IMG/VR virus record: IMGVR_UViG_3300036784_000146
Coordinates: 32,001 to 96,000 of that record
Direction: 5' to 3' (one strand)
Source of the DNA: a virus
Taxonomy: Duplodnaviria > Caudoviricetes
Length of the DNA: 64,000 nt
Numbering within the stretch: position 1 is the stretch's first letter; every line of letters begins with the position of its first letter. The position numbers and the translations under genes were made by a program. The notes under the pieces were generated by a model. That model saw nothing but the letters and a program-made list of their open reading frames with translations. It did not search any database and had not been told where the DNA came from. This document shows, piece by piece, positions 8,740 through 38,504 of this stretch.

Positions 8740-9326
8740 TGCGGTTCCTCCCTGTTCTACTGGGGTTGTTTGCTGCGTTCTGTCTGGGGATCGCTCCCGC
8801 GCACGCCAACATCGGTGGCAGCGTGCCCAGCCCGGGCGAGTGCGACTACCCCGGCGTCGGTACGTTCGGCGCCGCCTTCGGTGAATACGACGCGGGCTGT
8901 GCCTTTCCTACCGAGATCAACGGCAGTCACTGGCAGCTGCTTTACGGCGGCGGGATGTGGTCGGTGCAGGCCGGGGTGGGTTTCAGCCTGGCCGTCACTT
9001 TGAATTTCCAGGTCAACTCGCCCGCCGGTGTACTGCGCGGGATCACTTACTGGGCCTGCCCGGATCTCTCCATGGCCGAGCCCCCCAACCCACCGGGGGC
9101 CTGGAACCAGCACATCACCCCTTCCCCGTGCAAGACGGTCGCTCCCCGGCCGGTGCTACTGCGCGACGAGCCCCCGCCTCCACCCTTCGGGGTTCCCCCG
9201 CCTCCGCCGCCTCCTGCCGATATTGAGCCGCCGCTTCCCGCCGGTCCTCCGATGACCCCTCAGACCGGGGCCCAGACCAACCCCACCCCGGGTAATCCGG
9301 TGGCTCCCGACAGTCCCCGCCGTTAA
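8739..9326 (+). CDS. secreted Cys-containing protein with Pro-rich tail
   Basis: Sec signal MRFLPVLLGLFAAFCLGIAPAHA (AxA site); start overlaps the lysB stop. Confidence 0.65.
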   Translation: MRFLPVLLGLFAAFCLGIAPAHANIGGSVPSPGECDYPGVGTFGAAFGEYDAGCAFPTEINGSHWQLLYGGGMWSVQAGVGFSLAVTLNFQVNSPAGVLRGITYWACPDLSMAEPPNPPGAWNQHITPSPCKTVAPRPVLLRDEPPPPPFGVPPPPPPPADIEPPLPAGPPMTPQTGAQTNPTPGNPVAPDSPRR

Positions 9327-9332
9327 GGCCCC

Positions 9333-9372
9333 TGTAACACGCCCGATCCGGCCCGAGAAAGGGAGAAGGGAC
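9333..9372 (+). promoter_or_regulatory. bipartite TGT-N22-AAAGGG motif, copy 2
   Basis: CCTGTAA (TGT at 9333), AAAGGGAGAAGGGA from 9358. Confidence 0.55.
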
Positions 9373-9402
9373 GTTTCATTGGCTGACGGAAGCAGGGTCG
9401 CA

Positions 9403-12372: not shown

Positions 12373-12732
12373 ATGATTGGCACGGTGTGCCAAGGCTGCA
12401 AGCAGCTCGCCGAGATCGCCCACACCGATAGCCTCGGCCTCGGCTACTGCGCTCGGTGCGCCAAGGACATCCCAATCCAAAGCGAGACACTGGGTTTGGA
12501 GTACCTGATAGCCAACCCCCCGTTCTTCCCCGGCGATCGAGTAGAGTGCCGGACCGGCGGAGAGATTTTCGACGGAGTCGGAACCGTCCAGGAGATGAGT
12601 TTCGATTTCGAGCACGGGGGAACTTTGATCTATCCTGCCTTCCGCGTGACCATCGACGAACCTGCCAACGAGCACAGTCCGGTCGAAGGCTGGTGGACCG
12701 AGGTCTGCTTGAAGAAGGTGGGTAAGCCATGA
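12373..12732 (+). CDS. hypothetical protein with N-terminal CxxC...CxxC
   Basis: CQGC and CARC pairs; stop overlaps the portal start. Confidence 0.6.
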   Translation: MIGTVCQGCKQLAEIAHTDSLGLGYCARCAKDIPIQSETLGLEYLIANPPFFPGDRVECRTGGEIFDGVGTVQEMSFDFEHGGTLIYPAFRVTIDEPANEHSPVEGWWTEVCLKKVGKP

Positions 12733-15879: not shown

Positions 15880-16179
15880 TTGTCTGACATGAAGTCTGAC
15901 TCCGAGAATGCTGTCGATGTCTACTATCTGACGCTGCCAGTGGCTAGTTCGGACCAAGCCAGAAGTTTGGCCAACTACCTGAACGCCCATGGGGTGGAAG
16001 CGGTTCCGGACGGCAACGACGGCGTCACGTGCCCAGTGGCCAAGGACGAGACGGTTAGCGACATCCGCCAGTTGCAGAAGTCGTGGTACAAATTCTGGGA
16101 ACACTCCGATGCCGAAGTTTTCGGACTGTCCGTCTACGTCAAGCCTGCCGGGGTAACCTGCAGCCATGAGTCTCCCTGA
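15880..16179 (+). CDS. hypothetical protein (~99 aa)
   Basis: ORF overlapping the next gene start. Confidence 0.55.
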   Translation: MSDMKSDSENAVDVYYLTLPVASSDQARSLANYLNAHGVEAVPDGNDGVTCPVAKDETVSDIRQLQKSWYKFWEHSDAEVFGLSVYVKPAGVTCSHESP

Positions 16180-16807
16180 CATCGAAGCCAATATCGAGGC
16201 TGCCATGGATTGGGCTCGATCGGTCAACGGCCAGCCCTACTTCAAGACCGCCGACGCCGAAGAGGCCAAGCAGTCCGGCGGCATGATCGCGCTTTACCCA
16301 CGCACCGACTTCGCTCAGATGTTGGCCGTGCCCGGCGGGGAGCCCGAAGACGACCTGCACCTGACCTTGGTCTTCCTGGGCGATGACGTCAGCACTCTGG
16401 ACCCCGCGAACCTAGGCGCGATCGTCGGCCGGGTCGCCGATTCCTACACCGAGATCACCGCGCGCGTCTTCGGTCACGCCGTGCTCAACCCCGACGGCGC
16501 CGAGGGCCGTGACCCCTGTGGTGTTTACCTGGTAGGTCATTCCCCCGAACTGAGCCAGATCCATGATGACGTGCGCGAGGCCGCCGAGATGGGTGCTCAG
16601 ATCCCCGAGCAGCACGATCCCTGGCTGCCTCACATCACCGCCGGATACGCCTCTCAGATGGGCGAAAGCACCCAGGTACGGGAGTACACCGGAGAGGTGA
16701 TTTTCGATCGTCTGGGGCTCGCTGTGGCCGGGGAAACGCAGTTCTATCCCTTCCATGGTGCCTCGATTGCGGCCGCATATACCTCTCTTGCGCACTGGCC
16801 CCTGTAG
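16166..16807 (+). CDS. 2H phosphoesterase (2'-5' RNA ligase/Acb1-like fold)
   Basis: Two HxT motifs, LHLTLVFLG and WLPHITAGY. Confidence 0.85.
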   Translation: MSLPDIEANIEAAMDWARSVNGQPYFKTADAEEAKQSGGMIALYPRTDFAQMLAVPGGEPEDDLHLTLVFLGDDVSTLDPANLGAIVGRVADSYTEITARVFGHAVLNPDGAEGRDPCGVYLVGHSPELSQIHDDVREAAEMGAQIPEQHDPWLPHITAGYASQMGESTQVREYTGEVIFDRLGLAVAGETQFYPFHGASIAAAYTSLAHWPL

Positions 16808-16847: not shown

Positions 16848-19800
16848 ATGACAATGATCCACACGGCGCACGGCGTCGGTGAGGTAGTCGAGACCGTCAC
16901 CGAGCGCGGCGGGCGCGTCAGCTACAAGGTCAAGGTTGGCCTCAACGAGGTCTGGGTGAAGGCCGCCGACGCGCGCTTCGCCGAGGGTGGCCCAGAGAAC
17001 CTGTTCAGCTACCAGTTCACTCCGGATCGCCACATCGATCCCACCGCCGAGATGTACGGAGCCTCGACTCCGGAAAAGGACTTCGTCGTGGGCAACGTCT
17101 TCGCCATGGGATCCAAGGGCTTCTCTCCGATGGCTCCGGCCAAGAGCGTGCGCGACATCAAGCGTCCCTACCCGTACGACCCCACCCCGCAGTACCCGGT
17201 CGACATGTTCACAGACTCGACCATTCAGCCCGGCGAGTACGAGATCGATCCCGACAAGCGGCTCAAGCCCTCGCAGCCGAGCACGCAGCCCCCGTCGCCG
17301 GGGCCGAGCCCCAGCCTGTTCGCCACCGGTGCTTACAGCGCGATCCAAGACCGCCCCGAGATCGTCCTGGGCAGTCGTCCCGGCAGCGACGAGGACTACC
17401 TCATCCACGAGGGCTTCTTCGCCGAGGCCGAAGAGCTGACCGACGAGCAGCGCGGCAAGCGCCGCGAGGACTATCCACGTCAGAGTCGCGACCCGGCGGC
17501 CGACCGTCCCCGCTTGCGCGAGCACGACGAGCCGGTCCTCCCCTTCGACAAGGTCTCTCCGTCCGGCCACACCACCCACGAGATGGGCAAGAAGAGCGAG
17601 CCCGACTGGTACAGCTGCCCGGACTGCGGGGCCTGGCACAACCCGTTCCGGCACATGAAGAACCGCCGGGGTCCCAAGCCGCCGCGCTCCGACGACGCTT
17701 TCCAGCCCGCCTACAAGGGCGCTTCGATGCGCTGTGCGGCCTGCGAGCATGACCACCAAGAGCACGGCATGGGCTATCACGAGGGCGAGGGCGAGTTCGA
17801 GAACTATCAGCCGCCTTGGGAGCGCTCGGCTGAAGGGCGCCACCGCGCGCCGCCCAACGAGGTGGACCCCTTCATCGACACTCTCGACCGTGGTGCGTTG
17901 CCCGAACTGGTCAGAGATCCCGGCAACGACCAGCAGGTCTTCATGAAGCGCACTCCGACACCGAAGCCACGTGGGGAGCACTTCGCCCCGGGCATCATGG
18001 ACCGTCTGCGCGGCCGGGCGGCCGGTGTCTTCGACGGCATCGAGTTCCCCACCGACATGCCCGAGAAGTTCGCCTACATCCCCGGGCCCGAAGACTTCAC
18101 CGACTCGGCGCAGACCGCGCTGGCCGCGATCACTCGCCAGGCCGCGATCCTGGAAGGCGAGTATGGACTGAGCCCGCGCGTGGCCGTCGAGATGGACTTG
18201 GTCGAACACGACGCGCACGTGCGCGAGGCAGCATGGCGTGACGTCCAGCGCAAAGCCAAGCGCCTGCGCGCCGAGGGCCGGGTGCACATCAAGGACAGCA
18301 GTCCCGAGCACATCGTGGCCACCGTCGACGGCGACACCGGCACCTACGACACGATCATCGTGCGCGGCAACGTCTTCGACCTGGGTGGCCAGTCGGTCAC
18401 CAGCTGGCACTGCGGCTGCGACTGGGGTCGATGGGCGTTCAAACGCCGCCTGACCTACGTCGGGCGCTTCTGCTCTCACGCGTACGCCACCTACCAGGAA
18501 ATGCGTTCAGCGCACGATCTACCCGGCGGGACACGCAGCCGTACGCGCAGCGCCGGAAGCCATGAATTTGCGGACCCCACCGACGAAGCGGATGCCCGTT
18601 TGCAGTACGAGCAGTCCGGTGCAAGGCCGGTAGCTCCTGGTAGCGATGCGTACCTTCACGCCCCCAGACCCGCCGGTCCTCCCATTCCTGGCTGGGTGGG
18701 TCAGTCTGTCGAGGGCGGCGAGCCCGGCCGACACCGTGCGGCCGGAGTGGTCGAGGACTACAAGAAGTGGCTCAAGGAGAACGACCAGGTTCCCGGCGTG
18801 GACTCGGTGGCTGATTTCGTCACGCTGCCCCAAGACGACGATGAAGAGGCACCGCTGACCGAGGACGAGGTGGCCAAGCTCTACGACTACGCCGAGGGCA
18901 ACCTGCCGGAGTCTCGGGAGCGCAACTACGATGTGGGGTACACCTTCGACCCTGATGAGGTGTACAAGACCAGCCGCGAGATGCTGCGCACCAAGCCGCA
19001 GAGCCTCACCCCGGACCTGCAGTTCGTGCCCGAGGGCGAAGACGAGCATCTGGTCGACGTCACCAAGGACGACCGCAAGACCACCGGCCCGGGCCAGATC
19101 ATGCACGGCAACACCGATGACGAGGGTGGCCAAGAGCCCGGCGACGGCGAGATTGTGCACTTCGCCAGCCTGCAGCGGCTCTGCGACACCGAGGGCTTGC
19201 CCTACCCGGTCGAGCTGACTGCGTTCCTACAGCACTACGCCGAAGAGCAGAAGGTCAACAACCCGACCCCAGGCTCTCCGGCCAACCCCCGGCCGGACGC
19301 CGGTGAGGCCACTCGCGACCTCAACAAGCTGCGCAACCTGATCCAGGACCCGCTCTCCGACAGCTTCGGTCACATGGACGAGCGCAACGACAAGGTCCGC
19401 GATCTGGTGGAAGAGCTGCACGACGCCGGAACGGCCGCCGAGAACCTGGTGGCCAGCCGCCAGTTCGAGGCCGAGGGCGACTTTGCCTCTCCGGGTGGTG
19501 GCACCTGGGCCGATCTTCCCTTCGCGGGATCCGGCCCTGACCCCAAGGACTGGTACAGCAGCTCGGCCGACTACGTCGACGAGCACGAGCGGCCCAACTT
19601 CACCGACGTCACCGACCTGCCCGACGGCGACATCCTGAAGTACAACGACTCCGACTCGCCGGTGAGCAAGCCCAAAGAAGCCCGGTACGAGCACGAGGGT
19701 GAAGAAGAGGATTACGGCGACGAGGGTCCCCTGGAAGCTCCTTCCGATGCGCCTTGGGGCGAAAAGAACCCGCGTTGGAGCCCGCGCCACGCCGACTTGT

Positions 19801-20924
19801 TCTCCAACGAGACCAGCTCGATGCAGCCGATGGAGCCCAACGTTGGTGGCGGGGGGCCGGGCGACGTCAACAACGCGCCTCCCATCATGAACGCTGGGGA
19901 CAACGTCTCGGGCGCTGAAGAGGACCCCACCGGCACGCTGGCCAGTCTGCTGCACTTCGCCGACGACGATGACCTCACTAGCGGTGACACCATGGGCGAT
20001 CCCGGCGGCGGCATGACCGATGGTGGCGGCAACTCGATGGGGATGGGTGGCGGCGACTCGATGGGTGGTGGTGGCGACTGGATGGGCACCCCTAGCGGTG
20101 GCCTCCACTATCCGGGTCTCGACACCGACTCGGGCGGCGTCAGGTTTGGACCTATGTCCCCGGATTCTTCTACCCCTTCGGCCACTCCGGGCCTTCCCGG
20201 TGGAGCCGGTGCCAGTGACTTCGTGCATCCGTCCGGTCCGGTCGGTGCCCCGGGCGACATGATCCATCCGGATAAGAGCGTGACTTACGCCAATCAGCAG
20301 CGTCCTTCGATCCGAGACAGCATCGCGAAGCGCAACCAGCACTGGCGGCACGGCTACGACTGGTCGAACGTGCCTCCCGGCTGGGGTGACGTCCCCAGCA
20401 ACCCCGACGACGACAGCGATCCGCTGCCCCCGTTGCCGGGCCAGAAAGAAGTCGAGAACCTGCTGCCCAACCAGATGCCCAAGATCCCCGGCATGGGTAA
20501 GGGCGGCCCCGGCGGTGCCGGTGGTGCAGCTGGCGAGGCCGGGATGGCCGAGGAGTTGCCGTTGGTGGCGGCCTCCATCGACCCGCGTTGGGACCAGTCC
20601 GACGTGGTGGCCCAATTCCAGCGGTCAGCCGGGGCGGCAGCCCTGCGTGGACGCGGCCAAGGTGGCCCGCCTCAATCCGACCCGCGCGCGCAGGCGATGT
20701 CCCAGTGGGGCGGGGCGCCGGGCGGCGTCACCCGCGCCGGTAGCCGTGGCAACTTCTCCGAGGGCGACATCGCCGGGGCGGCAGCTAGCTTCCTACACCG
20801 CACCGCCGGACGCACCTATTCACCGGCCGAGCAGGCCAGTCTGATGAACGAGGAGCCGGTCAACGGCCGGGGTGCGCGCAACCTCGGTGGTCTCGATCTC
20901 CAAGGGACCCACTACGTCCAATGA
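16848..20924 (+). CDS. large multidomain head-region protein with SWIM-like zinc finger
   Basis: 1358 aa; WHCGCDWGRW...RFCSHAYA SWIM-like motif; extensive acidic/Pro/Gly low complexity. Confidence 0.75.
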   Translation: MTMIHTAHGVGEVVETVTERGGRVSYKVKVGLNEVWVKAADARFAEGGPENLFSYQFTPDRHIDPTAEMYGASTPEKDFVVGNVFAMGSKGFSPMAPAKSVRDIKRPYPYDPTPQYPVDMFTDSTIQPGEYEIDPDKRLKPSQPSTQPPSPGPSPSLFATGAYSAIQDRPEIVLGSRPGSDEDYLIHEGFFAEAEELTDEQRGKRREDYPRQSRDPAADRPRLREHDEPVLPFDKVSPSGHTTHEMGKKSEPDWYSCPDCGAWHNPFRHMKNRRGPKPPRSDDAFQPAYKGASMRCAACEHDHQEHGMGYHEGEGEFENYQPPWERSAEGRHRAPPNEVDPFIDTLDRGALPELVRDPGNDQQVFMKRTPTPKPRGEHFAPGIMDRLRGRAAGVFDGIEFPTDMPEKFAYIPGPEDFTDSAQTALAAITRQAAILEGEYGLSPRVAVEMDLVEHDAHVREAAWRDVQRKAKRLRAEGRVHIKDSSPEHIVATVDGDTGTYDTIIVRGNVFDLGGQSVTSWHCGCDWGRWAFKRRLTYVGRFCSHAYATYQEMRSAHDLPGGTRSRTRSAGSHEFADPTDEADARLQYEQSGARPVAPGSDAYLHAPRPAGPPIPGWVGQSVEGGEPGRHRAAGVVEDYKKWLKENDQVPGVDSVADFVTLPQDDDEEAPLTEDEVAKLYDYAEGNLPESRERNYDVGYTFDPDEVYKTSREMLRTKPQSLTPDLQFVPEGEDEHLVDVTKDDRKTTGPGQIMHGNTDDEGGQEPGDGEIVHFASLQRLCDTEGLPYPVELTAFLQHYAEEQKVNNPTPGSPANPRPDAGEATRDLNKLRNLIQDPLSDSFGHMDERNDKVRDLVEELHDAGTAAENLVASRQFEAEGDFASPGGGTWADLPFAGSGPDPKDWYSSSADYVDEHERPNFTDVTDLPDGDILKYNDSDSPVSKPKEARYEHEGEEEDYGDEGPLEAPSDAPWGEKNPRWSPRHADLFSNETSSMQPMEPNVGGGGPGDVNNAPPIMNAGDNVSGAEEDPTGTLASLLHFADDDDLTSGDTMGDPGGGMTDGGGNSMGMGGGDSMGGGGDWMGTPSGGLHYPGLDTDSGGVRFGPMSPDSSTPSATPGLPGGAGASDFVHPSGPVGAPGDMIHPDKSVTYANQQRPSIRDSIAKRNQHWRHGYDWSNVPPGWGDVPSNPDDDSDPLPPLPGQKEVENLLPNQMPKIPGMGKGGPGGAGGAAGEAGMAEELPLVAASIDPRWDQSDVVAQFQRSAGAAALRGRGQGGPPQSDPRAQAMSQWGGAPGGVTRAGSRGNFSEGDIAGAAASFLHRTAGRTYSPAEQASLMNEEPVNGRGARNLGGLDLQGTHYVQ

Positions 20925-23900
20925 CTGTCGACCTGCGTGACCACGACGTAGAGCGCCGCTTCGTGCAAGCGCTCAAGCACAGCGGTGTTCCCGTCTCCAA
21001 CAAGGCCATGCCGTCGACCCGGCAGCTGCGCGCAACGTCGATTTTGGCCAACAGGCAGCACAAGGTTGTCGGGAAGATTGCGGCCGTCAAGACCAGCCGC
21101 AAGGCGGTCTACTCGATGGTGGAGCCCTTCGCCAAACACGGCACCGTCGTCAAGGACTTCGAGTTCGTTCCCGGGATGCTCTACACCAAGGTGCGGGCGA
21201 TCTCGGCGCGCATCAACCAGAACTACGACGCGTGGCCGTCTGGTCAGCTCAAGACCAGCTACCTCACCTTCTTGGGCAAGCCGATCTTCGTCAATCACGC
21301 CAACTTCGACCCCGATCGGGCACGGGGTCGGGTGGTGGCCGCGCGCTACATCGAGAACGGCCGGGACAAGTACGTCGAGACCGTGATGGAGGTCGACGCA
21401 CTCAACTTCCCCCGGCTGGCGGCCGAGATCCACAACGGCGGCCTGGACAGCGTGTCCATGGGCGTCGAGGCGGGCTTCACGATCTGCAGCTTCTGCGGCA
21501 ACAAGGCTACCGACGTGTTCGACATGTGCGACCACGTTAAGTTCCACAAGGGTAGTCACCTACCAGACCCACGCACCGGACAACCCAAGCTGGTGTACGA
21601 AGACTGTCACAAGCTAGGTTTCTTCGAGCTGAGCTACGTGTTCGACCCGGCCGACGAGACGGCGGTGGTCTCACAGGTAATCGTGGCCGACAAGCGTGTC
21701 GCCGACAACCAGTTCATCAAGCGCGAAGGTGCCCGGCCGATCGACCCCAGCCAGGAGGTCTTCGTCCACTACAACCGGCACGCCTTCAATCGGCAGAAGC
21801 GCACCGGCCAGCCTCAGGCCGACCTGTGGTCGATCCGCCAGGACGATCCGGAGACCAGAAAGCACGTGCGCGGTTACATCAACGACCTGCACTTGCGTGA
21901 TGCCCGCCTGCACGTCCAGCCCGGTGGCAGCCAGCTTTACAAGGACACCTACACCGATGATCGCGGCGAGGGTGATCGCACCGTGCACGCGGGCATCTAC
22001 GGGACGCTGGACAGCGGGCCTCCCCCGGAGGGCATGTCGATGTCGGTTCTGGGTTACAACCCCAAGACCGACTCCACCTTCGTCCACAAGGACACAGGAG
22101 AGCCCGTGCACGAGGCCGACCACATCCACGTCGACCCCGCTGGCAAGGTCTACGGCTACAAGGCCGACGGCTGGGGACGCACTGCACGCCGCAAGAAGGC
22201 CTGGGGTGAAACCGAAGCCCCCGAGGACATCGACACGCTGCGCGAGGACGACGACGACAGCGATGACGACTACGAGTTCGTCACCCCCTATCGACCCGAC
22301 GGTGCTGATGACATGCCGTTCGCGAACGAGATCGGCTCACCGCAGGAATTGCAAACCCCAGACTTCGACCAGACCAAGCGCCTCGACCGCGACCAAGAGG
22401 AAGAGGGCCTGGACTCCGACCGAAGGGTCGAGGACGTCGGAGAGGTCGGAGCCCCGTCCAACGGGACTCAAGCTCAGCCGAAAGCGGCAAGGAAACAAAG
22501 GAGGAAGGCGATGGCTCGCACCAAATACGCCGCTGAGGAGGACCGGGACGACGACCGTCTCCCCCCGTGGCTTCAGGATGACGACCAGGGTGGCGGCGAC
22601 GAAGGTGGCTTCCCCGACGATGGCGGCGATGGCGGTCCCCCGCCTCAGGGTCCGCCCGACGACGGCGGTGACTTCGGCGACGACGGCGGTGATGACCTCG
22701 AATCCCGCGTCGACCAGCTTGAGCAGGCTGTCGGCGAGCTGCAGGACGAGGTGGGCCCCGACGAAGACGACAGCATGGACGGGCCGCCTGCGCCCCCGCC
22801 GCCAGGTCCCCTTGGTCCTCCGCAGTTCGCCGCCCGTAACCGGCGTCAACAGCCTCGTCAGGCCACTCGGCGCACCGCCAAGGATGACGACGATTCGGAC
22901 GATGACGATGACGACGATTCGGACAAGGACGACAACAAGCCGCCGTGGCTCAAGGAGAAAGAATCTCGGCGTCGTACGCCCCAACGCCCTGTGAACGGGC
23001 GCTCCCCGCAAAAGAAGGGGAGAAAGGGCTCGCAGAAAGGAGCGCCGACCGTGGGAGCACCTCGTCTCTCTGAGCGCAGCAAGGTGGCCGCCTCTTCGCG
23101 TGCGCGCAACCGTCGCACCGCCGACGACAGCGGACACACCGACGGCGGCCCGTACGGCGAGAACACCCTCGGCGAGCAGGCCGAGACTTACATCCCGTCG
23201 GTGTACGGCGAGGGTGACGGCGTTCCGCCCGAAGAGCCCGTGGCCGCTCCGGCTGGCGACGAGTCCAAGGCGCCCAATAGCGAGAGCAACCTGGTGGCCA
23301 GGATCCACAAGCAGAAGGTGGCCTTGGAGCGTGACATCCAGACCTACATGCGGATGCAGGCCGGGCGTCGGACCGCTGAGGACTCCGGCGTGGTGCAGCC
23401 CACTACGGTCAACCCAGAGTTGAGCGGCACCGAGGACCAGTCCGTGCGCGGCGACGACTTCCAGGACGTCGGTCTGGATTACGGCAGCTCGGCCGAGACT
23501 CAGCCCAAGGACGCCAGTCGCCACTGGTTCGCTCAGTTCAACAACTGGTTGCGCCAGGTCACCGGCAAGAACTGGAACCAGCACACCTCCGGGCACCTGA
23601 CCCGGTATGCCGCCCATTGGGCGAAGGGGACCGGCGTTCCGCTGGATGCCATGTTCCCGACCCTGCAAACTGCGCTTCGCCAGGCGAAGAAGGGTGAGGC
23701 AAGGAGTAGTTCCATGAGACGTCGCGCCGAGGACGAGAAGCTGGAAGTAGCAGCTCCGGACGAGCGTGTCGACGTGGAGCGGCCGGTTTCCAACGAGACC
23801 GACGCGGACGCGCAAGCGTCACAGTTCGATCTGCACGATTTCGGCGACAATGCGGGGGATAACCTCGCCGATCCAGATATGGACGTCGACTCGCAGATCT

Positions 23901-24283
23901 GGGCTCCGGGCGAGGGAGAGGCAGCCGCCGGTAGCGGCGATCGCTCTGCCTCCCGGGTCAAGATGGCCGACGGTATGCAGGCGCTGCGGTGCGCCGAGGC
24001 ATACATCAGGTGCGGCCTGGTCCATCCCAGCCAGAAGTGGAAGGTCGGCAGCTGGCTGCAGACCATCCGGATGGCCACGGTGGTGGATCGTACGAAGCTC
24101 CTGGAAGCTGTCTACGCGGCTAACCAGCGGGCTTTCACCGCAGCGAGGCAACCCGCAGGAAACATGCGCGGGGCCACGACAGGCACTGTTCCTCCGGGCT
24201 TCGGCTCGGGACGGCGAGTTGCGTCAACCGCCCGAGAGAGTGCCTTGGACCCCAAGTTCGACGCGATGATGTGGCTCAGCTAA
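20921..24283 (+). CDS. capsid maturation protease fused to an inserted domain and scaffold
   Basis: KPIFVNH...ARGRVV, DSVSMG, CSFC..C.H and FFELSYVFDPAD are prohead-protease-like; acidic/coiled-coil scaffold follows; lies upstream of capsid genes. Confidence 0.8.
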   Translation: MTVDLRDHDVERRFVQALKHSGVPVSNKAMPSTRQLRATSILANRQHKVVGKIAAVKTSRKAVYSMVEPFAKHGTVVKDFEFVPGMLYTKVRAISARINQNYDAWPSGQLKTSYLTFLGKPIFVNHANFDPDRARGRVVAARYIENGRDKYVETVMEVDALNFPRLAAEIHNGGLDSVSMGVEAGFTICSFCGNKATDVFDMCDHVKFHKGSHLPDPRTGQPKLVYEDCHKLGFFELSYVFDPADETAVVSQVIVADKRVADNQFIKREGARPIDPSQEVFVHYNRHAFNRQKRTGQPQADLWSIRQDDPETRKHVRGYINDLHLRDARLHVQPGGSQLYKDTYTDDRGEGDRTVHAGIYGTLDSGPPPEGMSMSVLGYNPKTDSTFVHKDTGEPVHEADHIHVDPAGKVYGYKADGWGRTARRKKAWGETEAPEDIDTLREDDDDSDDDYEFVTPYRPDGADDMPFANEIGSPQELQTPDFDQTKRLDRDQEEEGLDSDRRVEDVGEVGAPSNGTQAQPKAARKQRRKAMARTKYAAEEDRDDDRLPPWLQDDDQGGGDEGGFPDDGGDGGPPPQGPPDDGGDFGDDGGDDLESRVDQLEQAVGELQDEVGPDEDDSMDGPPAPPPPGPLGPPQFAARNRRQQPRQATRRTAKDDDDSDDDDDDDSDKDDNKPPWLKEKESRRRTPQRPVNGRSPQKKGRKGSQKGAPTVGAPRLSERSKVAASSRARNRRTADDSGHTDGGPYGENTLGEQAETYIPSVYGEGDGVPPEEPVAAPAGDESKAPNSESNLVARIHKQKVALERDIQTYMRMQAGRRTAEDSGVVQPTTVNPELSGTEDQSVRGDDFQDVGLDYGSSAETQPKDASRHWFAQFNNWLRQVTGKNWNQHTSGHLTRYAAHWAKGTGVPLDAMFPTLQTALRQAKKGEARSSSMRRRAEDEKLEVAAPDERVDVERPVSNETDADAQASQFDLHDFGDNAGDNLADPDMDVDSQIWAPGEGEAAAGSGDRSASRVKMADGMQALRCAEAYIRCGLVHPSQKWKVGSWLQTIRMATVVDRTKLLEAVYAANQRAFTAARQPAGNMRGATTGTVPPGFGSGRRVASTARESALDPKFDAMMWLS

Positions 24284-24322: not shown

Positions 24323-24883
24323 ATGTTGCGGGTAACACTGAACAACCCGGCGCAACAGCGGACCTTGCTGCCCAAGTACGCGCAGACCCAAGCGACTGCC
24401 TACTCCGGCTTCTGGGTCCCCACCTGGACGCGCCAGTACGACGTCTACCCCGGCAGCGTGGTCAAGCTCTTGCATGACGAGGTCTTCACGCTCTGGGACG
24501 GCTTCGGCGAGCCCTTCGGCTTGTCGTCGCTGTTTATCGCCCCGGCCCTGGGGATCGACGAGATCCTCAACACCGGAGGCAACGAGTTCACCGCATGGCA
24601 GATCGAGCCGCAGGGCCTGTTCGAGGTCCTGGCACCGGCGTTCGACCAGACGGCCACGTGGGCGTCTGAGCAGCACGGCGGTCAAGTGCTGCTGACGGGC
24701 ACCACAGCGCCGGTCACGCTGCCGAGTGGGGTTGTGCAACCCCCGGGTGTGCTCACTCCGGTGGGCGCCAACAACGCCAATTCGGTCGCGACCCTGGTCT
24801 CGGTCGAATCCACGTCCAAGATCCTGATCAGCGGCCGCCGGTACAGCTTCGGCACGGGCGTTGCTCTGGGCACCGGAAGCTAA
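24323..24883 (+). CDS. head decoration/cement protein
   Basis: 186 aa beta-rich protein between scaffold and major capsid gene; YPG..V and GLFEV motifs. Confidence 0.55.
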   Translation: MLRVTLNNPAQQRTLLPKYAQTQATAYSGFWVPTWTRQYDVYPGSVVKLLHDEVFTLWDGFGEPFGLSSLFIAPALGIDEILNTGGNEFTAWQIEPQGLFEVLAPAFDQTATWASEQHGGQVLLTGTTAPVTLPSGVVQPPGVLTPVGANNANSVATLVSVESTSKILISGRRYSFGTGVALGTGS

Positions 24884-24895
24884 GGGGAGGAAACC

Positions 24896-25909
24896 ATGGG
24901 ACTTCCAGCTCTAGTGGCAAACGCCCCCGGCCTCGAAAGGTTCGGCGCAGCAACATCGAGCGACGAGATTGTCGTGAAGATGGGTCAGCTGCAGCAACGT
25001 CTGGGCGGCCGTAAACTGTCCATGCGGGAGAAGCAGATCCGGATGGCGCACATGCTGCGGGATGCCAACAGCGGCATGTTGCGGCTCGGCCAGTCGATGA
25101 TCGGCCCGATCCAGCTGCAGTTGCGCTATCAAGGGATCCTGCGAAATGTGTTGTTAGAGGACACATTAACGCCCGGAGTACCAATTCAGTACGACATCCT
25201 CGACCAGCTCGGTCAGGCCTATGTGCTGCACGGTGCCGAGGGTGAAATCCGCATCACGCCCTTCGAGGGCAAGCGTGTGGAGGTGCAGCTGTTCCGCATA
25301 GCTACCTTCCCGATCATCCGCAAGGAGGACCTGTACTTCCTCAGGGCTAACCTGGTCGAGTATCAACAGGACTTCTCCAAGCAGGCGATCATGCGCCAAG
25401 AGGACGGCCGTCTGGTCAGCCTCATCGAGACCGCCGTCGCGCAGTACCGGCTGGTGGACACCTCGTCGGTGCCGGTTACCGGGTCGCTGCCCAACGAGAT
25501 CTCGGTGGCCGGAGACATCCTGGCTCCCGACGACCTCTACAACGCGGTCACCTACACCGACCAGCGCATGCTCGACAGCACGCGTTTGCTGGTGAATCCC
25601 AAAGAATATCGGGATTTCTACAGGTGGGACATCAACACAACCGGCTGGGCCTTCAAGGACAGCGTGGTTGCTGGCGAGCGCATCGTACAATTCGGTGAGT
25701 TCCAGATCGGGAAGAGCATCATCATCCCGATCGGCACGACTTACCTCACGCCGGACCCCGAGTTCCTCGGCGTCTTCCCCGTGATGTACAGCCTCGATGT
25801 CGAAGAGAACAACCTCGTCCAGCAGTTCCATAAGGGCTGGGTGATGGACGAACTGGTCGGCATGGCGATCCTTAACCCTCGTGGTTTGATCATTCTGCGC
25901 AAGCAGTAA
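24896..25909 (+). CDS. major capsid protein
   Basis: 337 aa; IGPIQLQLRYQG...AIMRQED...GW.MDELVGMAILNPRG is an HK97-fold-like pattern; followed by a terminator. Confidence 0.85.
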   Translation: MGLPALVANAPGLERFGAATSSDEIVVKMGQLQQRLGGRKLSMREKQIRMAHMLRDANSGMLRLGQSMIGPIQLQLRYQGILRNVLLEDTLTPGVPIQYDILDQLGQAYVLHGAEGEIRITPFEGKRVEVQLFRIATFPIIRKEDLYFLRANLVEYQQDFSKQAIMRQEDGRLVSLIETAVAQYRLVDTSSVPVTGSLPNEISVAGDILAPDDLYNAVTYTDQRMLDSTRLLVNPKEYRDFYRWDINTTGWAFKDSVVAGERIVQFGEFQIGKSIIIPIGTTYLTPDPEFLGVFPVMYSLDVEENNLVQQFHKGWVMDELVGMAILNPRGLIILRKQ

Positions 25910-25999: not shown

Positions 26000-27520
26000 G
26001 TGGACATGGGGTCTCTGATGGTCCTCGCTGACGCGATCACCCTACTGGCCTACGACATCCAGTCCCCGGCTCCCGGTGCTCCGCTGACGACCATCAGGGG
26101 GCCCAAGGGCCCCTCTCTGGATCCGGCCAACGACCCCATGGGTCACCTGGACAAACGGCCCTACAACTACGACACGATGGTCTCTAACCTAGAGAGCCAC
26201 TACCACGGCGCGAGCGACAACGAGCGCAGGCAGGGCAGGTTCTGGTACAAGGGCGCCAACGATCTGTTCGGCAAGTTCGCCAAGAACAACGACATCAGCC
26301 CCGAGCGTGCGGTCGCCTACGGCGCGGCGTTCTCGCCGCTGACCGACTGGGGCGACAACGTCCACCACGCTCAGCAGTTCATGCTGGGCTACCGGCCAGG
26401 GGACCCTAATTTCAGTGAGCACGACTGGCAGGTTGCTCATATCCATCCCGGGGCGTTGGACGCCTTCCGGCAGCAGACTGGACGCGATCCGTCGCACTCG
26501 GACGAGGATCTGCACCAGCTGGCCGACTTGCACGCTGACGCGTTCTCACGTGGGCCCAAGAAGAACGCGGTCAACGATCTCTCCAACCCTGCGGCCCGGG
26601 CCGACTGGATGGCCAACATCCAGCACAAGGGCATGGATGCCGTCCTAGAAGACCACGAGCGCCAGAAGGAGGCTTGGCGTAAGGACGTCAACAGGAGCGG
26701 CCCCTACAACCCGTCGATGGCGATGCGCCCCTCGGGCATCAAGACGCTCGGCGGCAACATCCAGAAGGCCAAGGACCTCTACCACGCACCCGAGGACGTC
26801 GCGCAGATGTTCGGGGTGCTGGGCGGCCCGAAGATCAGCCACTTCACCGACAACATCCTCGACGACACCCCGATCAATGAGGAGGGGTATTATCAGCACC
26901 CCAACGGCGACTGGACTCAGAACAAAGACCTGGGCGGCACGATCGACAGCCATCACATCCGGGCTTCGAGCATGCCCCACGGGGGCTGGGAGCGTAAGGC
27001 CTATGCCTCCAAGAACCCCAACACCGCCCATGAGTACGACGTGTTCAACCGTGGCCTCTACGACGCCACCAAGCGCATCAATGACGCCGAACCCGATGCC
27101 ACCAAGCACATCACCCCCAAGCAGCTACAGGCCATCGTGTGGCTCAAACACAAGAACGACAAGGACTACTTCGAGCGCCAGCGCAACCCCCAGACCGGCC
27201 AGCTGATCAACCACGAGAGCGAGCTGGGCGGCGCCGGGCGTCCTGAGGACTGGCAGTATGCCGAGAAGAGCTACAAGTCCAAGGGCAAGGGCTTGGGCAA
27301 GGGACGCAGCCGTGCGGCCGCGCTGGACGAGGCCGACTTCGCCGACATGCCGCCGCTGTGGCGCAAGATGTTCATGAGTCGGCGCCCCGCCGAATGGACC
27401 GAGCTGCTTTCCGCGTGGGTGAACCACCACGCGCCGGAATCTGTGGACCCGGATCCCACGCGTGAGGCTCGCACCATCAACGACGCGGTGGTCTTGACGG
27501 CGGTGGCGGCTCTTGTCTGA
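26000..27520 (+). CDS. DUF7178-like helical phage protein (possible DNA-acting enzyme)
   Basis: GRFWY...AAFSP..DW.DN, GPKISHF.DNI, TIDSH and TPKQLQAIVW motifs. Confidence 0.55.
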   Translation: MDMGSLMVLADAITLLAYDIQSPAPGAPLTTIRGPKGPSLDPANDPMGHLDKRPYNYDTMVSNLESHYHGASDNERRQGRFWYKGANDLFGKFAKNNDISPERAVAYGAAFSPLTDWGDNVHHAQQFMLGYRPGDPNFSEHDWQVAHIHPGALDAFRQQTGRDPSHSDEDLHQLADLHADAFSRGPKKNAVNDLSNPAARADWMANIQHKGMDAVLEDHERQKEAWRKDVNRSGPYNPSMAMRPSGIKTLGGNIQKAKDLYHAPEDVAQMFGVLGGPKISHFTDNILDDTPINEEGYYQHPNGDWTQNKDLGGTIDSHHIRASSMPHGGWERKAYASKNPNTAHEYDVFNRGLYDATKRINDAEPDATKHITPKQLQAIVWLKHKNDKDYFERQRNPQTGQLINHESELGGAGRPEDWQYAEKSYKSKGKGLGKGRSRAAALDEADFADMPPLWRKMFMSRRPAEWTELLSAWVNHHAPESVDPDPTREARTINDAVVLTAVAALV

Positions 27521-31552: not shown

Positions 31553-32542
31553 GTGGTTGCCTATCCGTCGGGCATGGCCGTCTGGTCCCCGAAGATCACC
31601 AACTCGGCGTTGGCCCGAAAGTTCGTCTCGCTCAACGGGTATGGCTACGTCGCGATCACCATCTATAACGGCCAGACTGCCGTCGACCCCGACCCGGGGA
31701 CGCTGGCCCTGCAGGTCTGGTTCGACGACGTCACCAATCCCGATGCGACACTGAGCGATCCGCGCGGCACTCAGGTGATCAACGTGACGGCCAGCGAGAT
31801 CACTCGCGCCGATACTGGCATGTACCACTACGCCATTGGACCCGAGTACACCGGCAATATCGGGGTGCTCACCGCCGAGTGGTCCTATCAGGTTGCCGGT
31901 CAGGCCATCACCTACAGCGACTACCTGCAGATCCTCGAACAGATGCCGTTGTACGAGACGCTCACCGACGCCGAGAAAGGCCTTGTCGAGCAAGTGAATT
32001 GGATGCTCGGGGACCTCTTCGATTCCACCACCGGCGGCCCGCACCTGATGGACGAGTTCCAGACGCACTTCAATTCGGAGCGCATCGCCGAGCTGGCCCA
32101 GATCGCCACCACCCGGTTCAACTACATCGGCTTCCCGGTGACCGACTACGCCTTCGGGGGTACCAGCTCGGGCCAGGGTGGCTTCACCGGCCTGTTGGTG
32201 ATCGGCACTTACCTGGAAGTGCTGCGCCACCTTATCCGCAGCTACGTCGAGATCCCGGTGTGGCAGAACATGAACGTCACCTACGAGGACCGCCGCGAGT
32301 ACATGGCCCGCTGGAAGCAGGTCTTCGACGACGAGTGGGCCGACTACCAGACGATGGTCAAGATGGCCAAGCGCTCGCTGCTGCAGCTGGGTCGGGGCTC
32401 GCTGCTGCTCGGCGGTGGCTACTTCGGCATGAACGGCAGCCGGGGCCTGTTCCTGTTCAGCCCCTACTCGGCTCTCGCTCGGAGCTTCCGCTTCTATCCC
32501 GCCGCCCCGGCGATCAGCTTCCCGTCGACGAGGATCCCGTGA
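31553..32542 (+). CDS. head-tail adaptor/neck protein
   Basis: Synteny; DRREYMARW and LLLGGG motifs typical of large-myovirus adaptors. Confidence 0.55.
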   Translation: MVAYPSGMAVWSPKITNSALARKFVSLNGYGYVAITIYNGQTAVDPDPGTLALQVWFDDVTNPDATLSDPRGTQVINVTASEITRADTGMYHYAIGPEYTGNIGVLTAEWSYQVAGQAITYSDYLQILEQMPLYETLTDAEKGLVEQVNWMLGDLFDSTTGGPHLMDEFQTHFNSERIAELAQIATTRFNYIGFPVTDYAFGGTSSGQGGFTGLLVIGTYLEVLRHLIRSYVEIPVWQNMNVTYEDRREYMARWKQVFDDEWADYQTMVKMAKRSLLQLGRGSLLLGGGYFGMNGSRGLFLFSPYSALARSFRFYPAAPAISFPSTRIP

Positions 32543-33261
32543 TGCGCATCCACAGGCAGGCCGAGACTTTTGCCTACCGGCTGGCGACACCCGCCATGCC
32601 GGGAGCTTCGCTAAACGTCACCGACAGCGCTCCCCAGAGAAACAGACCCGTCAAGCTGGTGTACGGCGGCGCATTCAACCCGCCGCACGAGGGGCACGTA
32701 GGCGCGCTGCGAGACGCGCACAATGCGCTCGCCGGTGCTGGGTACCAAGTAGACGGCACCGTCGTTACGCCTACCGCAGACAAGCTGTTGGCGAAGAAGC
32801 AGATGGATCCGCAGTATCAACTGGGCCTGCAGGCTCGCGCCAACGTGAGCCGGGCCGCATTCCCACCCGAGATAAACGGTTCTCCCGTGGAGGTTCACAC
32901 CGGGCCGTCCGAGGAGGTCGAGCACTCCGCAGGGAAGCCACGGCGCACCGATCTCGCGAACTGGGTGCAGCGGCAATACCCGAATCACACCATCGTCAAC
33001 GTCACCGGAGAAGACGCCACCGTGCCCGGTGCCCCTGAGGGCGGTCCGCATCCGTCGCTGTACTCCGGCGAGGTCGGCTCCAATCATGCGGGCTACAACT
33101 ATCTCACGCTGCCGCGCGATCCCGTAGAGAGCATGAGTTCAAGCAAGATTCGCGCTGCCGAAGCTGCAGGCCAGCCGCTCCCTGGAATGACGCCAGGGTC
33201 GGAGCGTGCCTATCGCGAAGAGCTGGCAAAGCATCGAGCGAACTTCGCCGGGATTCCGTAA
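32542..33261 (+). CDS. NadD/NMNAT-like HxGH nucleotidyltransferase
   Basis: YGGAFNPPHEGH and MSSSKIR motifs; true start ATG 32542 overlaps the upstream stop. Confidence 0.8.
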   Translation: MRIHRQAETFAYRLATPAMPGASLNVTDSAPQRNRPVKLVYGGAFNPPHEGHVGALRDAHNALAGAGYQVDGTVVTPTADKLLAKKQMDPQYQLGLQARANVSRAAFPPEINGSPVEVHTGPSEEVEHSAGKPRRTDLANWVQRQYPNHTIVNVTGEDATVPGAPEGGPHPSLYSGEVGSNHAGYNYLTLPRDPVESMSSSKIRAAEAAGQPLPGMTPGSERAYREELAKHRANFAGIP

Positions 33262-34226
33262 TGCAGGTCCTTCGGCAGCGCGAGCAGTTCGCCTACCGGC
33301 TGGCGGCGTCGACCAAGCTCTATCGAGGGCTCAATATCGACACGCGCCAGCCTGGGCTTGAGAAGGTGCATTCCATTCTGAATCCACCAGGCACACAGCC
33401 CCTAGAACACCACCCGGGTTGGGATCACCCCGAGGTGGGCACGCACTTACTGAACTGGCTGTCCGACAACAGGAGCGGTCTGGGCAGGCATTGGAGTGAA
33501 GACCCCGCTCAAGCCGAGACGTTCGCCAGGTGGCCCGACGAGACCACCGGACGAGGTGGCAATCTGCAGGCCGTCGTCGAGGGCGACTGGGGTGGGCAGG
33601 GAGCCGATCCCAACCGCACCAACACTCGCGAGTTCAACGACGCCGGAGAGCAGATCCGATCCTTCCCCTGGGAGAAGGAGCACACGCTGTCGCCGGGTGC
33701 CCACCTCAACGTCACCGGCCTGAAGATCCGGCCCTACGACGACGAGTACTGGAATGGCCCTAGCACGGGTGATGAGCCCATCGACGAGAACCACGAGGGG
33801 CCTTGGCATTCGGTGCTCGGTGCCTCGTCGTCGCGAACGGCCGCTGCTGCCGAGCCGTTCATGGTGCCGACCGAGCATTTGGCCCCTCATATCGTCTTCG
33901 ACCGGTCCACCATGATGGAGCAGAGCAAGCCCAACTTCCAGGAGCTGCTGGCGCACATCAAGAAGCACGGGATCCAAGATCCCGTCACCATGGAGACCGA
34001 CGGGCAAACGGGCACCTTGGCCGACGGCAACCACCGGTGGGCGGCCGCCAAGATCCTTGGCCTCCCTCACGTCCCCACTCGGTTCGTTCGAGAGAACACC
34101 AAGTTCTTGCAGCACATCGGTGCTCCGGAACTGCATCCGATGATCCGTCAGCACCTGGCGGCGCACCCGGAGGCCATTCAGGAGGACGTCGAGCGCCAGC
34201 CATCCTGGCAGCAGGGGGAACGATGA
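33261..34226 (+). CDS. ADP-ribosyltransferase-like domain fused to ParB/Srx N-terminal domain
   Basis: LYRG...G.HWS.D...A..FA...EKE (R-S-E-like), then IKKHGIQDPV...LADGNHRWAAAKILG (ParB-N). Confidence 0.65.
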   Translation: MQVLRQREQFAYRLAASTKLYRGLNIDTRQPGLEKVHSILNPPGTQPLEHHPGWDHPEVGTHLLNWLSDNRSGLGRHWSEDPAQAETFARWPDETTGRGGNLQAVVEGDWGGQGADPNRTNTREFNDAGEQIRSFPWEKEHTLSPGAHLNVTGLKIRPYDDEYWNGPSTGDEPIDENHEGPWHSVLGASSSRTAAAAEPFMVPTEHLAPHIVFDRSTMMEQSKPNFQELLAHIKKHGIQDPVTMETDGQTGTLADGNHRWAAAKILGLPHVPTRFVRENTKFLQHIGAPELHPMIRQHLAAHPEAIQEDVERQPSWQQGER

Positions 34227-34831
34227 CGATCCGAGTCCCCATGCAGTACTCGGTCTACCGGGCCCGTCGGTGGGTCAGGGGATCTCTGCAGGCTCACGGC
34301 GAGCAGTGCATCCTGCTGCCCATCTACCATCCCAGCCGGGATAAGGACGGCACGCGCTGTCCGCGCTGCACCGATGACATCTACACCGGCGGCAAGGCCA
34401 GTTGCTCGATCTGCTACGGCACGGCCTTCGTCGGCGGTCCCCGCACGGCCGCCCGCGTCTGGGCGCTCTTCAGCGATACCAAGCGCCCCGAGCAGTACGG
34501 CCAGCGCGGTGTCTGGGCGGCCGACGCGCGCGAGATCCAGACCGAGGCCTTCCCCGAGCTGCGCGAGCACGATTACGTGGCGCGGATAAAGAGCTGGGAC
34601 GTCACCGGCGCCATCCCGCAGGAGGTGTACGCCATTTACGGCGTCGGCGAGGTCAACCAGGACTCGCTGCGCACCGGCGGCCGGTTCGGCCAGTACCACC
34701 TCGACGTTGTCGGCCAGCGCGCACCGGTCACTAAGCTGGCGCCCAACATCAAGATCTACGACTACCCGCTCGTCGGCCAGACTTTCCCGGGCGTGAGCTG
34801 GGACAACCAGGGGAGGGTGATCGAGGGATGA
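34223..34831 (+). CDS. head-to-tail stopper/closure protein with Zn finger
   Basis: RCPRC...CSICYGT.F; synteny; start ATG 34223. Confidence 0.55.
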   Translation: MTIRVPMQYSVYRARRWVRGSLQAHGEQCILLPIYHPSRDKDGTRCPRCTDDIYTGGKASCSICYGTAFVGGPRTAARVWALFSDTKRPEQYGQRGVWAADAREIQTEAFPELREHDYVARIKSWDVTGAIPQEVYAIYGVGEVNQDSLRTGGRFGQYHLDVVGQRAPVTKLAPNIKIYDYPLVGQTFPGVSWDNQGRVIEG

Positions 34832-38240: not shown

Positions 38241-38504
38241 ATGGGACTGGGCATCGTCCGGCAAGCAGATCAATACGGGTTGGATGACGGCGTGCACGCG
38301 CCGGGAGAGTACGAAGCTCCTCCCGAGATCGATCCAGCCGAATCTCGGCGTCCACAGCACCAGCAGCAGCCGTCGTCGCCTTCCCCGTCTCCTGCTCCGT
38401 CGGTGATGGCGCAGCGCATGGGTCCACGCATCCAGGCGGGCACGATGGAGCGTGTTTCACGTGAAACATCGGCACCGATCCTGCCACCTGGTCTGGGGGG
38501 CTGA
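38241..38504 (+). CDS. hypothetical protein (87 aa) containing the parS site
   Basis: AAGGAGG RBS; stop overlaps the next start. Confidence 0.55.
   Translation: MGLGIVRQADQYGLDDGVHAPGEYEAPPEIDPAESRRPQHQQQPSSPSPSPAPSVMAQRMGPRIQAGTMERVSRETSAPILPPGLGG
38453..38468. promoter_or_regulatory. parS: parS centromere-like site
   Basis: Perfect 16-bp palindrome TGTTTCACGTGAAACA, identical to the bacterial chromosomal parS consensus. Confidence 0.85.

Follow-up and report, generated by a model that had tools for sequence, protein, structure and literature searches.

Why should two adjacent phage genes that encode dissimilar enzymes begin with a common 15-residue peptide? The question arises in a stretch of 64,000 nucleotides, hereafter the window, that spans positions 32001-96000 of one 143,610-bp virus contig (IMG/VR record IMGVR_UViG_3300036784_000146; CheckV completeness 96%), a distant relative of the Bxz1-type cluster C mycobacteriophages of the genus Bixzunavirus (nucleotide identity ~64%). 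Gene A (32542..33261, + strand; 239 residues) encodes a leader followed by a NadD/nicotinamide mononucleotide adenylyltransferase (NMNAT)-like nucleotidyltransferase. Gene B (33261..34226, + strand; 321 residues) encodes a leader followed by an ADP-ribosyltransferase (ART)-like domain and a ParB_N-like tail. Based on comparative sequence evidence and on analogy, we propose that the leader is probably a lineage-specific virion-loading tag, functionally similar to the capsid-targeting sequences (CTSs) of phage T4.

An initial sequence-only reading of the window had noted the shared 15-residue start of A and B. Translation confirms it, and three more tagged genes are present in the same genome. 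The leaders of gene A (MRIHRQAETFAYRLA; 32542..32586, + strand; profile score 28.7-31.5 bits) and gene B (MQVLRQREQFAYRLA; 33261..33305, + strand; 36.8 bits) both fit the pattern M-[RQ]-[IV]-x-R-Q-[AR]-E-x-F-A-Y-R-L-A and are identical at nine of 15 residues, counted from residue 1; outside the leader, BLASTP of A against B detected no credible similarity. Within the window, the starts of A and B are the only two places with the 15-nt core GCCTACCGGCTGGCG, and allowing up to two mismatches yields five matches in the window against 0.46 expected. We searched the whole genome with a regular expression and a leader profile over the six-frame translation of 143,610 bp. The profile returned exactly five matches (22-37 bits), each directly at a start codon, and the next best match scored no higher than 8.5 bits.

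The three additional tagged genes sit outside the window, 47-50 kb upstream of A and B; for positions outside the window, G000:C1 denotes the whole record, L002 a locus piece of the same genome, and G001 and L005 the nearest IMG/VR relative. They encode a 94-aa protein starting MRIYRQAETFALQAA (G000:C1 14998-15282 = L002 5998-6282), a 202-aa paralogue of the ART-like part of gene B (30-34% identity) starting MRILRQAEMFGYRTG (G000:C1 15848-16456 = L002 6848-7456), and a 408-aa Zeta_toxin/AAA_33 kinase starting MRILSQREQYAYRILG (G000:C1 16453-17679 = L002 7453-8679; PF06414, E value 4e-17). The cargos of the five leaders are hence a CTP_transf_like protein, two ART-like proteins, a Zeta_toxin protein and one protein without a known family. 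Two other genes were observed in this region. Between the tagged 94-aa and 202-aa genes lies a gene for a leaderless 190-aa protein (G000:C1 15279-15851 = L002 6279-6851) with a DCSGW motif and a weak NlpC/P60 match (E value 0.064), and just upstream, on the opposite strand, lies an HNH/NUMOD4 homing endonuclease gene (L002 5459-6025, - strand).

The leader is conserved at the level of the peptide, since same-residue codon pairs among nine leaders use different codons in 117 of 297 cases (39%) and the DNA upstream of the five leader starts has nothing in common. In the AlphaFold2 (AF2) model of gene A, residues 1-20 are disordered (predicted local distance difference test score, pLDDT, <50), and the leader is for this reason best regarded as an appendage rather than part of the enzyme fold. 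In the model of gene B, residues 6-15 of the leader are predicted to form a helix (pLDDT ~84). Fainter resemblances to the leader were also seen in the window. An 87-aa ORF between the tail tube and tail chaperone genes (38241-38504, + strand), with no Pfam or PHROG family, starts with the leader-like MGLGIVRQADQYGL (5.5 bits); its counterparts carry IVRQADQFGL in G001 (8.1 bits) and IIRQAEQYGL in L019 (11.6 bits). This ORF could encode a divergent sixth member of the tagged set, or the similarity may be due to chance. The best match to the profile away from an N-terminus is LRQAETYHGEGD at position 10786 (6.1 bits), internal to the 662-aa pre-portal protein (9379-11367; phrog_2922), and may be a relic joint.

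Genes A and B lie between two conserved neck genes. The upstream border is a gp120-like structural gene (31553..32542, + strand; 329 residues; phrog_2791, PHROGs E value 1.8e-119; homologue of StephanieG gp120), and the downstream border is a gp121-like zinc-ribbon neck gene (34226..34831, + strand; 201 residues; phrog_2806, PHROGs E value 1.2e-56; homologue of StephanieG gp121). All four genes (31553-34831) are chained by 1-nt stop/start overlaps: the ATG of gene A shares 1 nt with the stop codon of the gp120-like gene, as does the ATG of gene B with the TAA of gene A. The gp120 and gp121 homologues of Mycobacterium phage StephanieG sit side by side, in agreement with the earlier description of the pair as inserted in the neck operon. 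The gp120-like border gene is conserved and syntenic in StephanieG and at loci L005, L019, L020, L033, L037 and L043. Synteny likewise supports the gp121-like gene as the downstream border. The slot between these borders, in which the cargo varies, is located downstream of the portal, protease-scaffold and capsid genes, and the head genes of this phage match Bxz1-type PHROGs, not those of T4.

A search across related genomes, suggested in the sequence-only reading as a check, found the same leader on dozens of cargos in relatives. Every homologue that aligns from residue 1 has the leader (five ART, two NadD and 12 Zeta proteins, the last down to 41% identity). In Zeta orthologues with bodies 42-54% identical, mostly 10 of the 15 leader residues are kept; two of these orthologues keep eight and six. 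Among more distant ART homologues that stand alone, the leader takes either the short form or a long form, (M)RRI(V/L)TAREQxEML(S/A)PWR; the two can be aligned at R2, I3, the invariant E8 and the aromatic-Arg pair. We ran a degenerate DNA pattern of the long form against 2.9 million IMG/VR viral contigs and obtained 18 matches at 15 loci, all 18 within a few codons of an ORF start. The 18 cargos are mutually unrelated and range from 112 to >861 residues (three DUF7178 proteins, two GNAT proteins and others without a Pfam family). Recognisable Bxz1-type structural genes were present at 12 of the 15 loci. The tagged gene directly follows the capsid and cement genes in L031, L032, L034, L036, L038 and L042 and occupies the slot between gp120-like and gp121-like genes, as here, in L033, L037 and L043. 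In BananaFence, the tagged genes gp104 (MRITTAREQFEMLLPWREAD...) and gp105 are both annotated as hypothetical and are preceded by capsid gene gp98 and decoration gene gp100. The short-form DNA pattern recovered from IMG/VR only the one relative plus chance matches.

The slot also reveals how the two enzymes are connected. They had been described as an unrelated pair, a description that does not survive comparison with close relatives, where A and B are modules of one polyvalent protein of 818 or 866 residues. In the nearest IMG/VR relative (L005, from the 125.7-kb record G001), the same slot holds one 818-aa ORF that comprises, in order, the leader, a NadD-like module (79% identical to A), an HExxH module, an ART-like module (55% identical to B) and a C-terminal domain X. 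In metagenome contigs L021 and L022, it holds an 866-aa ORF in the order leader, ART, NadD, GNAT, the same domain X and a second GNAT, and in L019 and L020 it holds a leader-ART gene only. The 818-aa and 866-aa relatives have four to six modules; in the present genome the modules are separate genes, each with a full leader, gene B having two domains and gene A a single domain, a split-off module. Each fused polypeptide contains exactly one intact leader, at its N-terminus, together with decayed copies at internal joints. The copy at the internal joint of L021 is ARNVIRAATFCLAMPPG, and that of L005 is SMAYRFGSIQLHRGGNLDTT, which repeats the last part of the leader together with the start of the ART domain. 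These internal copies have lost E8; the N-terminal copies are intact. It follows from such joints, as read in sequence, that effector cassettes appear to recombine at or near the leader. Other traces of gene traffic were seen in relatives. In L019, a 312-aa Cys-rich homing-endonuclease-like gene (9062-10000) lies between the gp120-like and leader-ART genes; its product ends in 13 residues (AAPAISFPSTRIP) that repeat the C-terminus of the gp120-like protein, a pattern suggestive of an insertion footprint. No homologue of the Zeta protein was found in relative G001, which is 84% complete.

Other homologues of the NadD-like core (60-70% identical) begin with different N-termini. In the siphovirus-like contigs L026 and L028, the cargo genes follow the terminase, SPP1-type portal (SPP1_portal) and VG15 genes and precede the capsid gene, and none of the Bxz1-type head proteins matches either contig. 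The NadD-like, Zeta and DUF7178 proteins of these contigs begin GNP(Y/N)(H/R)DxxG(R/K)F: in L028 all three start (M/V)GNP(N/Y)HDxLG(R/K)F, and in L026 the NadD-like and Zeta proteins have ~30 N-terminal residues in common, including GNPYRDLRNGKF. We located this second leader, GNPYHDxxGRF, at L026 3490-5810, at L028 7162-10771 and at IMG/VR loci L047-L064. A Zeta-type kinase accompanies the NadD-like gene in three unrelated phage lineages, namely this genome, L026 and L028. To judge from these comparisons, a tag that serves many cargos within a lineage, together with a cargo whose tag differs across head types, is the pattern expected of a targeting signal that is read during assembly.

Several smaller features of these contigs deserve mention. 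The DNA pattern for GNPYHDxxGRF gave 19 matches in viral contigs of varied GC content, ~8 of them near ORF starts and the remainder at internal junctions of long ORFs, 160-640 residues from the upstream stop; because many matches fall at such junctions, this leader also behaves as an inter-domain joint. A gene of 108-116 residues with a DGHHR motif abuts the NadD-like gene on the opposite strand (L026 4280-4630, - strand; L028 10731-11057, - strand). Compared with the ParB part of gene B by BLASTP, the DGHHR genes gave E values of 0.08-0.13, a motif-level similarity only, and no Pfam ParB match; they may encode a partner or antidote. The C-terminal ~90 residues of the Zeta kinase (G000:C1 16453-17679) resemble, by eye only, a separate 88-89-aa ORF that follows the Zeta gene in both contigs (L026 5807-6076; L028 8148-8414), which is a possible fused/split partner of the kinase.

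What do the tagged enzymes do? For gene A, the earlier NadD/NMNAT-like assignment is borne out by both motifs and predicted fold. The protein contains GGAFNPPHEGH (HxGH at residues 49-52) and SSSKIR (residues 199-204), and its conserved core begins at approximately residue 24 (LNVTDSAP). S199, S200 and R204 are invariant in 17 of 17 aligned homologues, and the HxGH segment is conserved in the 14 that cover the region, the other three being fragments that do not reach it. The Pfam CTP_transf_like profile scored 20.6 bits against gene A (cut-off 21) and 25.8 bits, over the whole profile, against the orthologous module of L005. An AF2 model built with 17 homologues had a pLDDT of 83.7, and in a Foldseek search of the PDB with this model the top 45 matches were all nicotinate mononucleotide (NaMN) adenylyltransferases or NMNATs (E values 2.2e-7 to 1e-5, probability 1.0, template modelling scores 0.41-0.67), led by 1kam_B at 2.2e-7. 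No match to gene A was found by tblastn against GenBank phages, and phmmer or profile searches of PDB sequences with gene A, the ART profile, the Zeta protein and the Zeta profile returned nothing usable. Gene A is NadD/NMNAT-like by its motifs and modelled fold, and is predicted to adenylylate nicotinamide mononucleotide (NMN) or NaMN.

Gene B had been read as an ART-like domain joined to a ParB_N-like C-terminus, and each half finds some backing. The ART-like domain (~residues 16-200; 33306..33860, + strand) displays an R-S-ExE pattern, in order R22-G23, W78-S79 and E138-K139-E140. E140 never varies across a 35-sequence alignment, in which R22, G23 and W78 each reach at least 90% conservation. 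The domain matches phrog_3147 (E value 3.5e-18) and has 191 representative homologues, many within proteins of 2,000-3,000 residues. The gene B model is confident across the domain, and its leading fold matches are all ARTs (cholera, pertussis, LT, Rhs TreX, Tpt1 and PARP16), with weak scores (best Foldseek E value 4.5e-3; VIA Z score 5.4 and root-mean-square deviation 4.0 A over 101 residues to the Rhs toxin TreX). The Pfam model ART-PolyVal (PF18760) had no match in the genome at E values up to 1 and matched one of 35 relatives (E value 0.0094). Given the modest fold scores and the failure of ART-PolyVal to match, we call residues 16-200 an ART-like domain of an unannotated family, on motif and model evidence, with ADP-ribosylation as its predicted activity. 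The ParB_N-like segment (residues 222-278; 33924..34094, + strand) has a DGNHR motif and matches Pfam ParB_N with an E value of 4.3e-5 and 23.9 bits, below the cut-off of 26.3, in a part where the AF2 model is poor; several ParB PHROGs also match the C-terminal segment. This tail seems optional, since four of the five closest homologues (189-216 residues) lack it. The closest GenBank homologue of gene B, cluster C gp82 (Roots515), does not begin with the leader.

A phage NMNAT might be expected to rebuild NAD+ against NAD-depleting defences, as the sequence-only reading had supposed. This proposal loses its footing in the gene content: the NAPRTase/Nampt family (PF04095) and PnuC (PF04973) have no match in the 96%-complete genome, in which control families did match. 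The NAD+ reconstitution pathways NARP2 and NARP3 end with an NMN adenylyltransferase step and need Nampt (NARP2) or PnuC plus a nicotinamide riboside kinase (NARP3) (10.1101/2024.02.11.579819; PMC13464706). Because no Nampt-family or PnuC gene is present, the NMNAT-like enzyme would be unable to rebuild NAD+ from nicotinamide or to import nicotinamide riboside in the manner of these pathways. The genome resembles NARP2 and NARP3 phages in encoding an NMN adenylyltransferase-like enzyme; it differs in that the partner genes are absent and the context consists of virion genes and an ART. The NARP1 enzymes, Adps and Namat, differ from the gene A enzyme. Instead, since the enzyme is covalently fused to an ART in relatives and has a Zeta-type kinase as its companion in three lineages, its role may be tied to that of the other effectors, most simply as a local source of ART substrate.

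This idea may be extended to the whole tagged set, which would then be a virion-delivered, NAD-autonomous toolkit. The NMNAT-like enzyme would make NAD+ from NMN and ATP at entry, such that a co-injected ART could work in NAD+-depleted cells, and the Zeta-type kinase would act on the same nucleotide pool by phosphorylating the ribose of NAD or nicotinic acid adenine dinucleotide (NAAD) or by making NMN from nicotinamide riboside, the set being sorted by an undescribed actinophage targeting peptide. AvrRxo1 is a Zeta-family effector that phosphorylates the ribose of NAD or NAAD. Taken as a whole, we regard this extended scheme as unlikely.

For the leader itself, we favor loading into the virion. 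This reading draws on four observations: one tag heads five cargos in this genome and dozens in relatives; a fused protein has a single tag, and split genes have one each; the same cargo wears another tag where the head type differs; and tagged genes sit in head or neck gene blocks. In the mechanism that we envisage, Bxz1-type actinobacterial myoviruses would place the tag on effector enzymes made with the late structural proteins. By means of the tag, these effectors would bind to part of the growing head (scaffold, protease core or portal), become packed inside the particle and reach the next host along with the DNA, possibly after trimming behind the (Y/W)-R-x-A end of the tag. Once delivered, the NMNAT-like enzyme would be a likely local supplier of NAD+ for the co-delivered ART. 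Sequence shows the tag and where it occurs, supplies the domain assignments, and reveals both fused and split forms and a location among virion genes; from this we infer binding to a head component, virion enclosure, trimming, injection and the enzyme activities. Regarding trimming, many relatives end the tag with (Y/W)R-x-A-M-P, and x-A-M-P recurs at polyprotein joints, which suggests a possible protease site.

Several findings weigh against virion loading or its details. Our literature searches found no Bixzunavirus virion proteome. The R-x-A|M-P ending is not general here, as gene B ends YRLA-AST and the Zeta protein YRIL-GFT, and gene A carries the x-A-M-P ending only loosely (YRLATPAMPG); the strict motif [RK]-x-A-M-P is absent from the head proteins of this phage and not enriched in the genome. 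No peptidase family could be assigned to the protease domain (residues 102-255) of the protease-scaffold fusion encoded at 20921-24283. The leader-coding DNA also serves as a recombination joint, given the decayed copies at internal joints. The idea that the leader forms an amphipathic helix was set aside, the hydrophobic moment being marginally above shuffles for the short form and no different from them for the long form. Finally, as the slot lies in the neck block and the three upstream tagged genes adjoin minor-tail-like genes, a tail or neck destination is as compatible with the gene order as the capsid interior. Of the original claim of a capsid-targeting peptide, the targeting part has strong comparative support (distribution, fused and split forms, the switch with head type and gene position); the destination may instead be the tail or another partner.

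One such destination would be the neck or the lumen of the contractile tail, where the tag would dock its cargo in the same way as the N-terminal packing signals of extracellular contractile injection systems, and from which the cargo would still be injected. The 1-nt overlaps of A and B with two neck genes, the minor-tail-like neighbors of the other three and the leader-like start, scored at 5.5-11.6 bits in three genomes, of the 87-aa ORF that separates tube from chaperone all fit this proposal. We nevertheless consider it quite unlikely, since at half of the long-form loci the tagged gene is the immediate downstream neighbor of the major capsid and decoration genes, the 87-aa ORF resembles the leader weakly, and the lumen of a phage tail is occupied by the tape measure protein. 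The tag might otherwise be a handle for a common non-structural partner unconnected to the particle, such as a chaperone, a toxin-silencing inhibitor or a modifying enzyme. A single protector could indeed cover all of the cargos, which are toxin-like (Zeta kinase, ARTs), and the confident helix of the gene B leader (pLDDT ~84) would suit such binding. Yet only the head and neck module itself, and no other candidate partner gene, travels with the tagged genes; a different head type brings a different type of tag; and a lytic phage late in infection has little need to protect its host; this explanation is accordingly an unlikely one.

Two further explanations deny the peptide a function of its own. 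The leader could be a relic, a conserved 5' joint through which effector cassettes are exchanged by homologous recombination. Module order does differ among relatives (NadD then ART, or ART then NadD), and the partial copies in L021 and L005 mark internal joints. A DNA joint would, however, be kept as DNA, yet 39% of same-residue codons differ; moreover, it is the internal copies that decay at E8 and the N-terminal ones that do not, the leader persists on proteins whose bodies are as little as 42% identical, and three of the genes lie at 15-17.7 kb behind unrelated upstream DNA. We view this possibility as very unlikely. That the shared sequence is a nucleic-acid signal, either a translation start region or a small RNA target, is extremely improbable: although it is always located at the start codon, synonymous variation is high, the five starts have no upstream motif in common, and several of them are simply coupled to the stop codon before.

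Virion loading by a short tag has precedents in well-studied phages. The T4 CTSs are N-terminal propeptides of 10-19 residues common to the otherwise diverse internal proteins IPI-III (PMC9026906, PMC3012670), and T4 Alt has a 7-residue N-terminal propeptide (PMC9026906). Like these, the present leader is a short N-terminal peptide on otherwise unrelated, fast-evolving proteins of one phage; in both cases the phage is contractile-tailed, the cargo includes an ART, and the cargo set varies as the tag is kept (PMC9026906, PMC3012670). In T4, function, cleavage by gp21 and ejection have been demonstrated, whereas the leader here is known from sequence alone. The leader appears unrelated in sequence to the T4 CTSs, the head gene sets differ, the T4 internal protein genes lie outside the neck operon, and the tagged modules described here are also fused into polyproteins. 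In phage P1, the first 30 residues of DarB (N30) are sufficient for capsid loading (PMC9024508) and DdrB carries a ParB-like domain (PMC9024508, PMC5512222). The P1 Dar system is similar in that a short N-terminal stretch loads a large effector and a ParB-like domain is among the cargos, but the Dar proteins have no common consensus tag (PMC9024508), in contrast to the one tag on many cargos seen here.

The closest class by domain content is that of the polyvalent proteins (Iyer, Burroughs, Anand, de Souza, Aravind 2017), which, like the ARTs of head gene clusters, are predicted to be packaged and injected (PMC5512222, PMC9503650). As in that class, the present phage and its relatives combine ART, GNAT, zincin-like HExxH and ParB-like domains in variable order beside virion genes, with at least two unrelated effector domains in one polypeptide encoded among virion genes. 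The present genome differs in that the protein is split into one- or two-domain genes, each with its own leader, and in that Pfam ART-PolyVal has no match. A text search of PMC5512222 returned none of the terms 'NMNAT', 'NadD', 'adenylyltransferase', 'leader' and 'N-terminal signal', and the surveys of polyvalent proteins and NAD-ADP-ribose biology (PMC5512222, PMC9503650) do not mention an NMNAT-ART/Zeta link. Head-cluster ARTs, polyvalent proteins and the CTS concept are known; the actinophage leader family, the contrast between fused and split forms and the NMNAT-ART link appear to be undescribed in the papers searched.

If the tag does load the particle, a simple sequence rule would define the effector arsenal of many actinobacterial myoviruses, including the widely used Bxz1-type mycobacteriophages, and would turn dozens of 'hypothetical proteins' into candidates for injected factors of host takeover or anti-defence. 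The tag would then also offer a short handle for packing reporters, enzymes or foreign proteins into mycobacteriophage particles, as the T4 CTS and P1 DarB N30 do in Escherichia coli phages. The NMNAT-ART fusion and the recurrent Zeta-type kinase in head blocks connect the synthesis of NAD with its use in phage effectors.

The remaining late genes of the window frame the slot. Upstream of it lie the portal gene (12729-15305), a gene for a 1358-aa head protein (16848-20924), the protease-scaffold fusion gene, and the genes for the cement protein (24323-24883), the major capsid protein (24896-25909) and a DUF7178 protein (26000-27520); the gp121-like gene is followed by a phrog_2819 gene and then by the sheath and tube genes. 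Between the portal region and the 1358-aa head protein, a gene without the leader encodes a 213-aa 2H-superfamily phosphodiesterase (16166-16807, + strand), which matches 2_5_RNA_ligase2 (E value 2.3e-7) and, below the cut-off, the Acb1 anti-CBASS model (E value 6.3e-4). This phosphodiesterase is another candidate for a packaged anti-defence enzyme.

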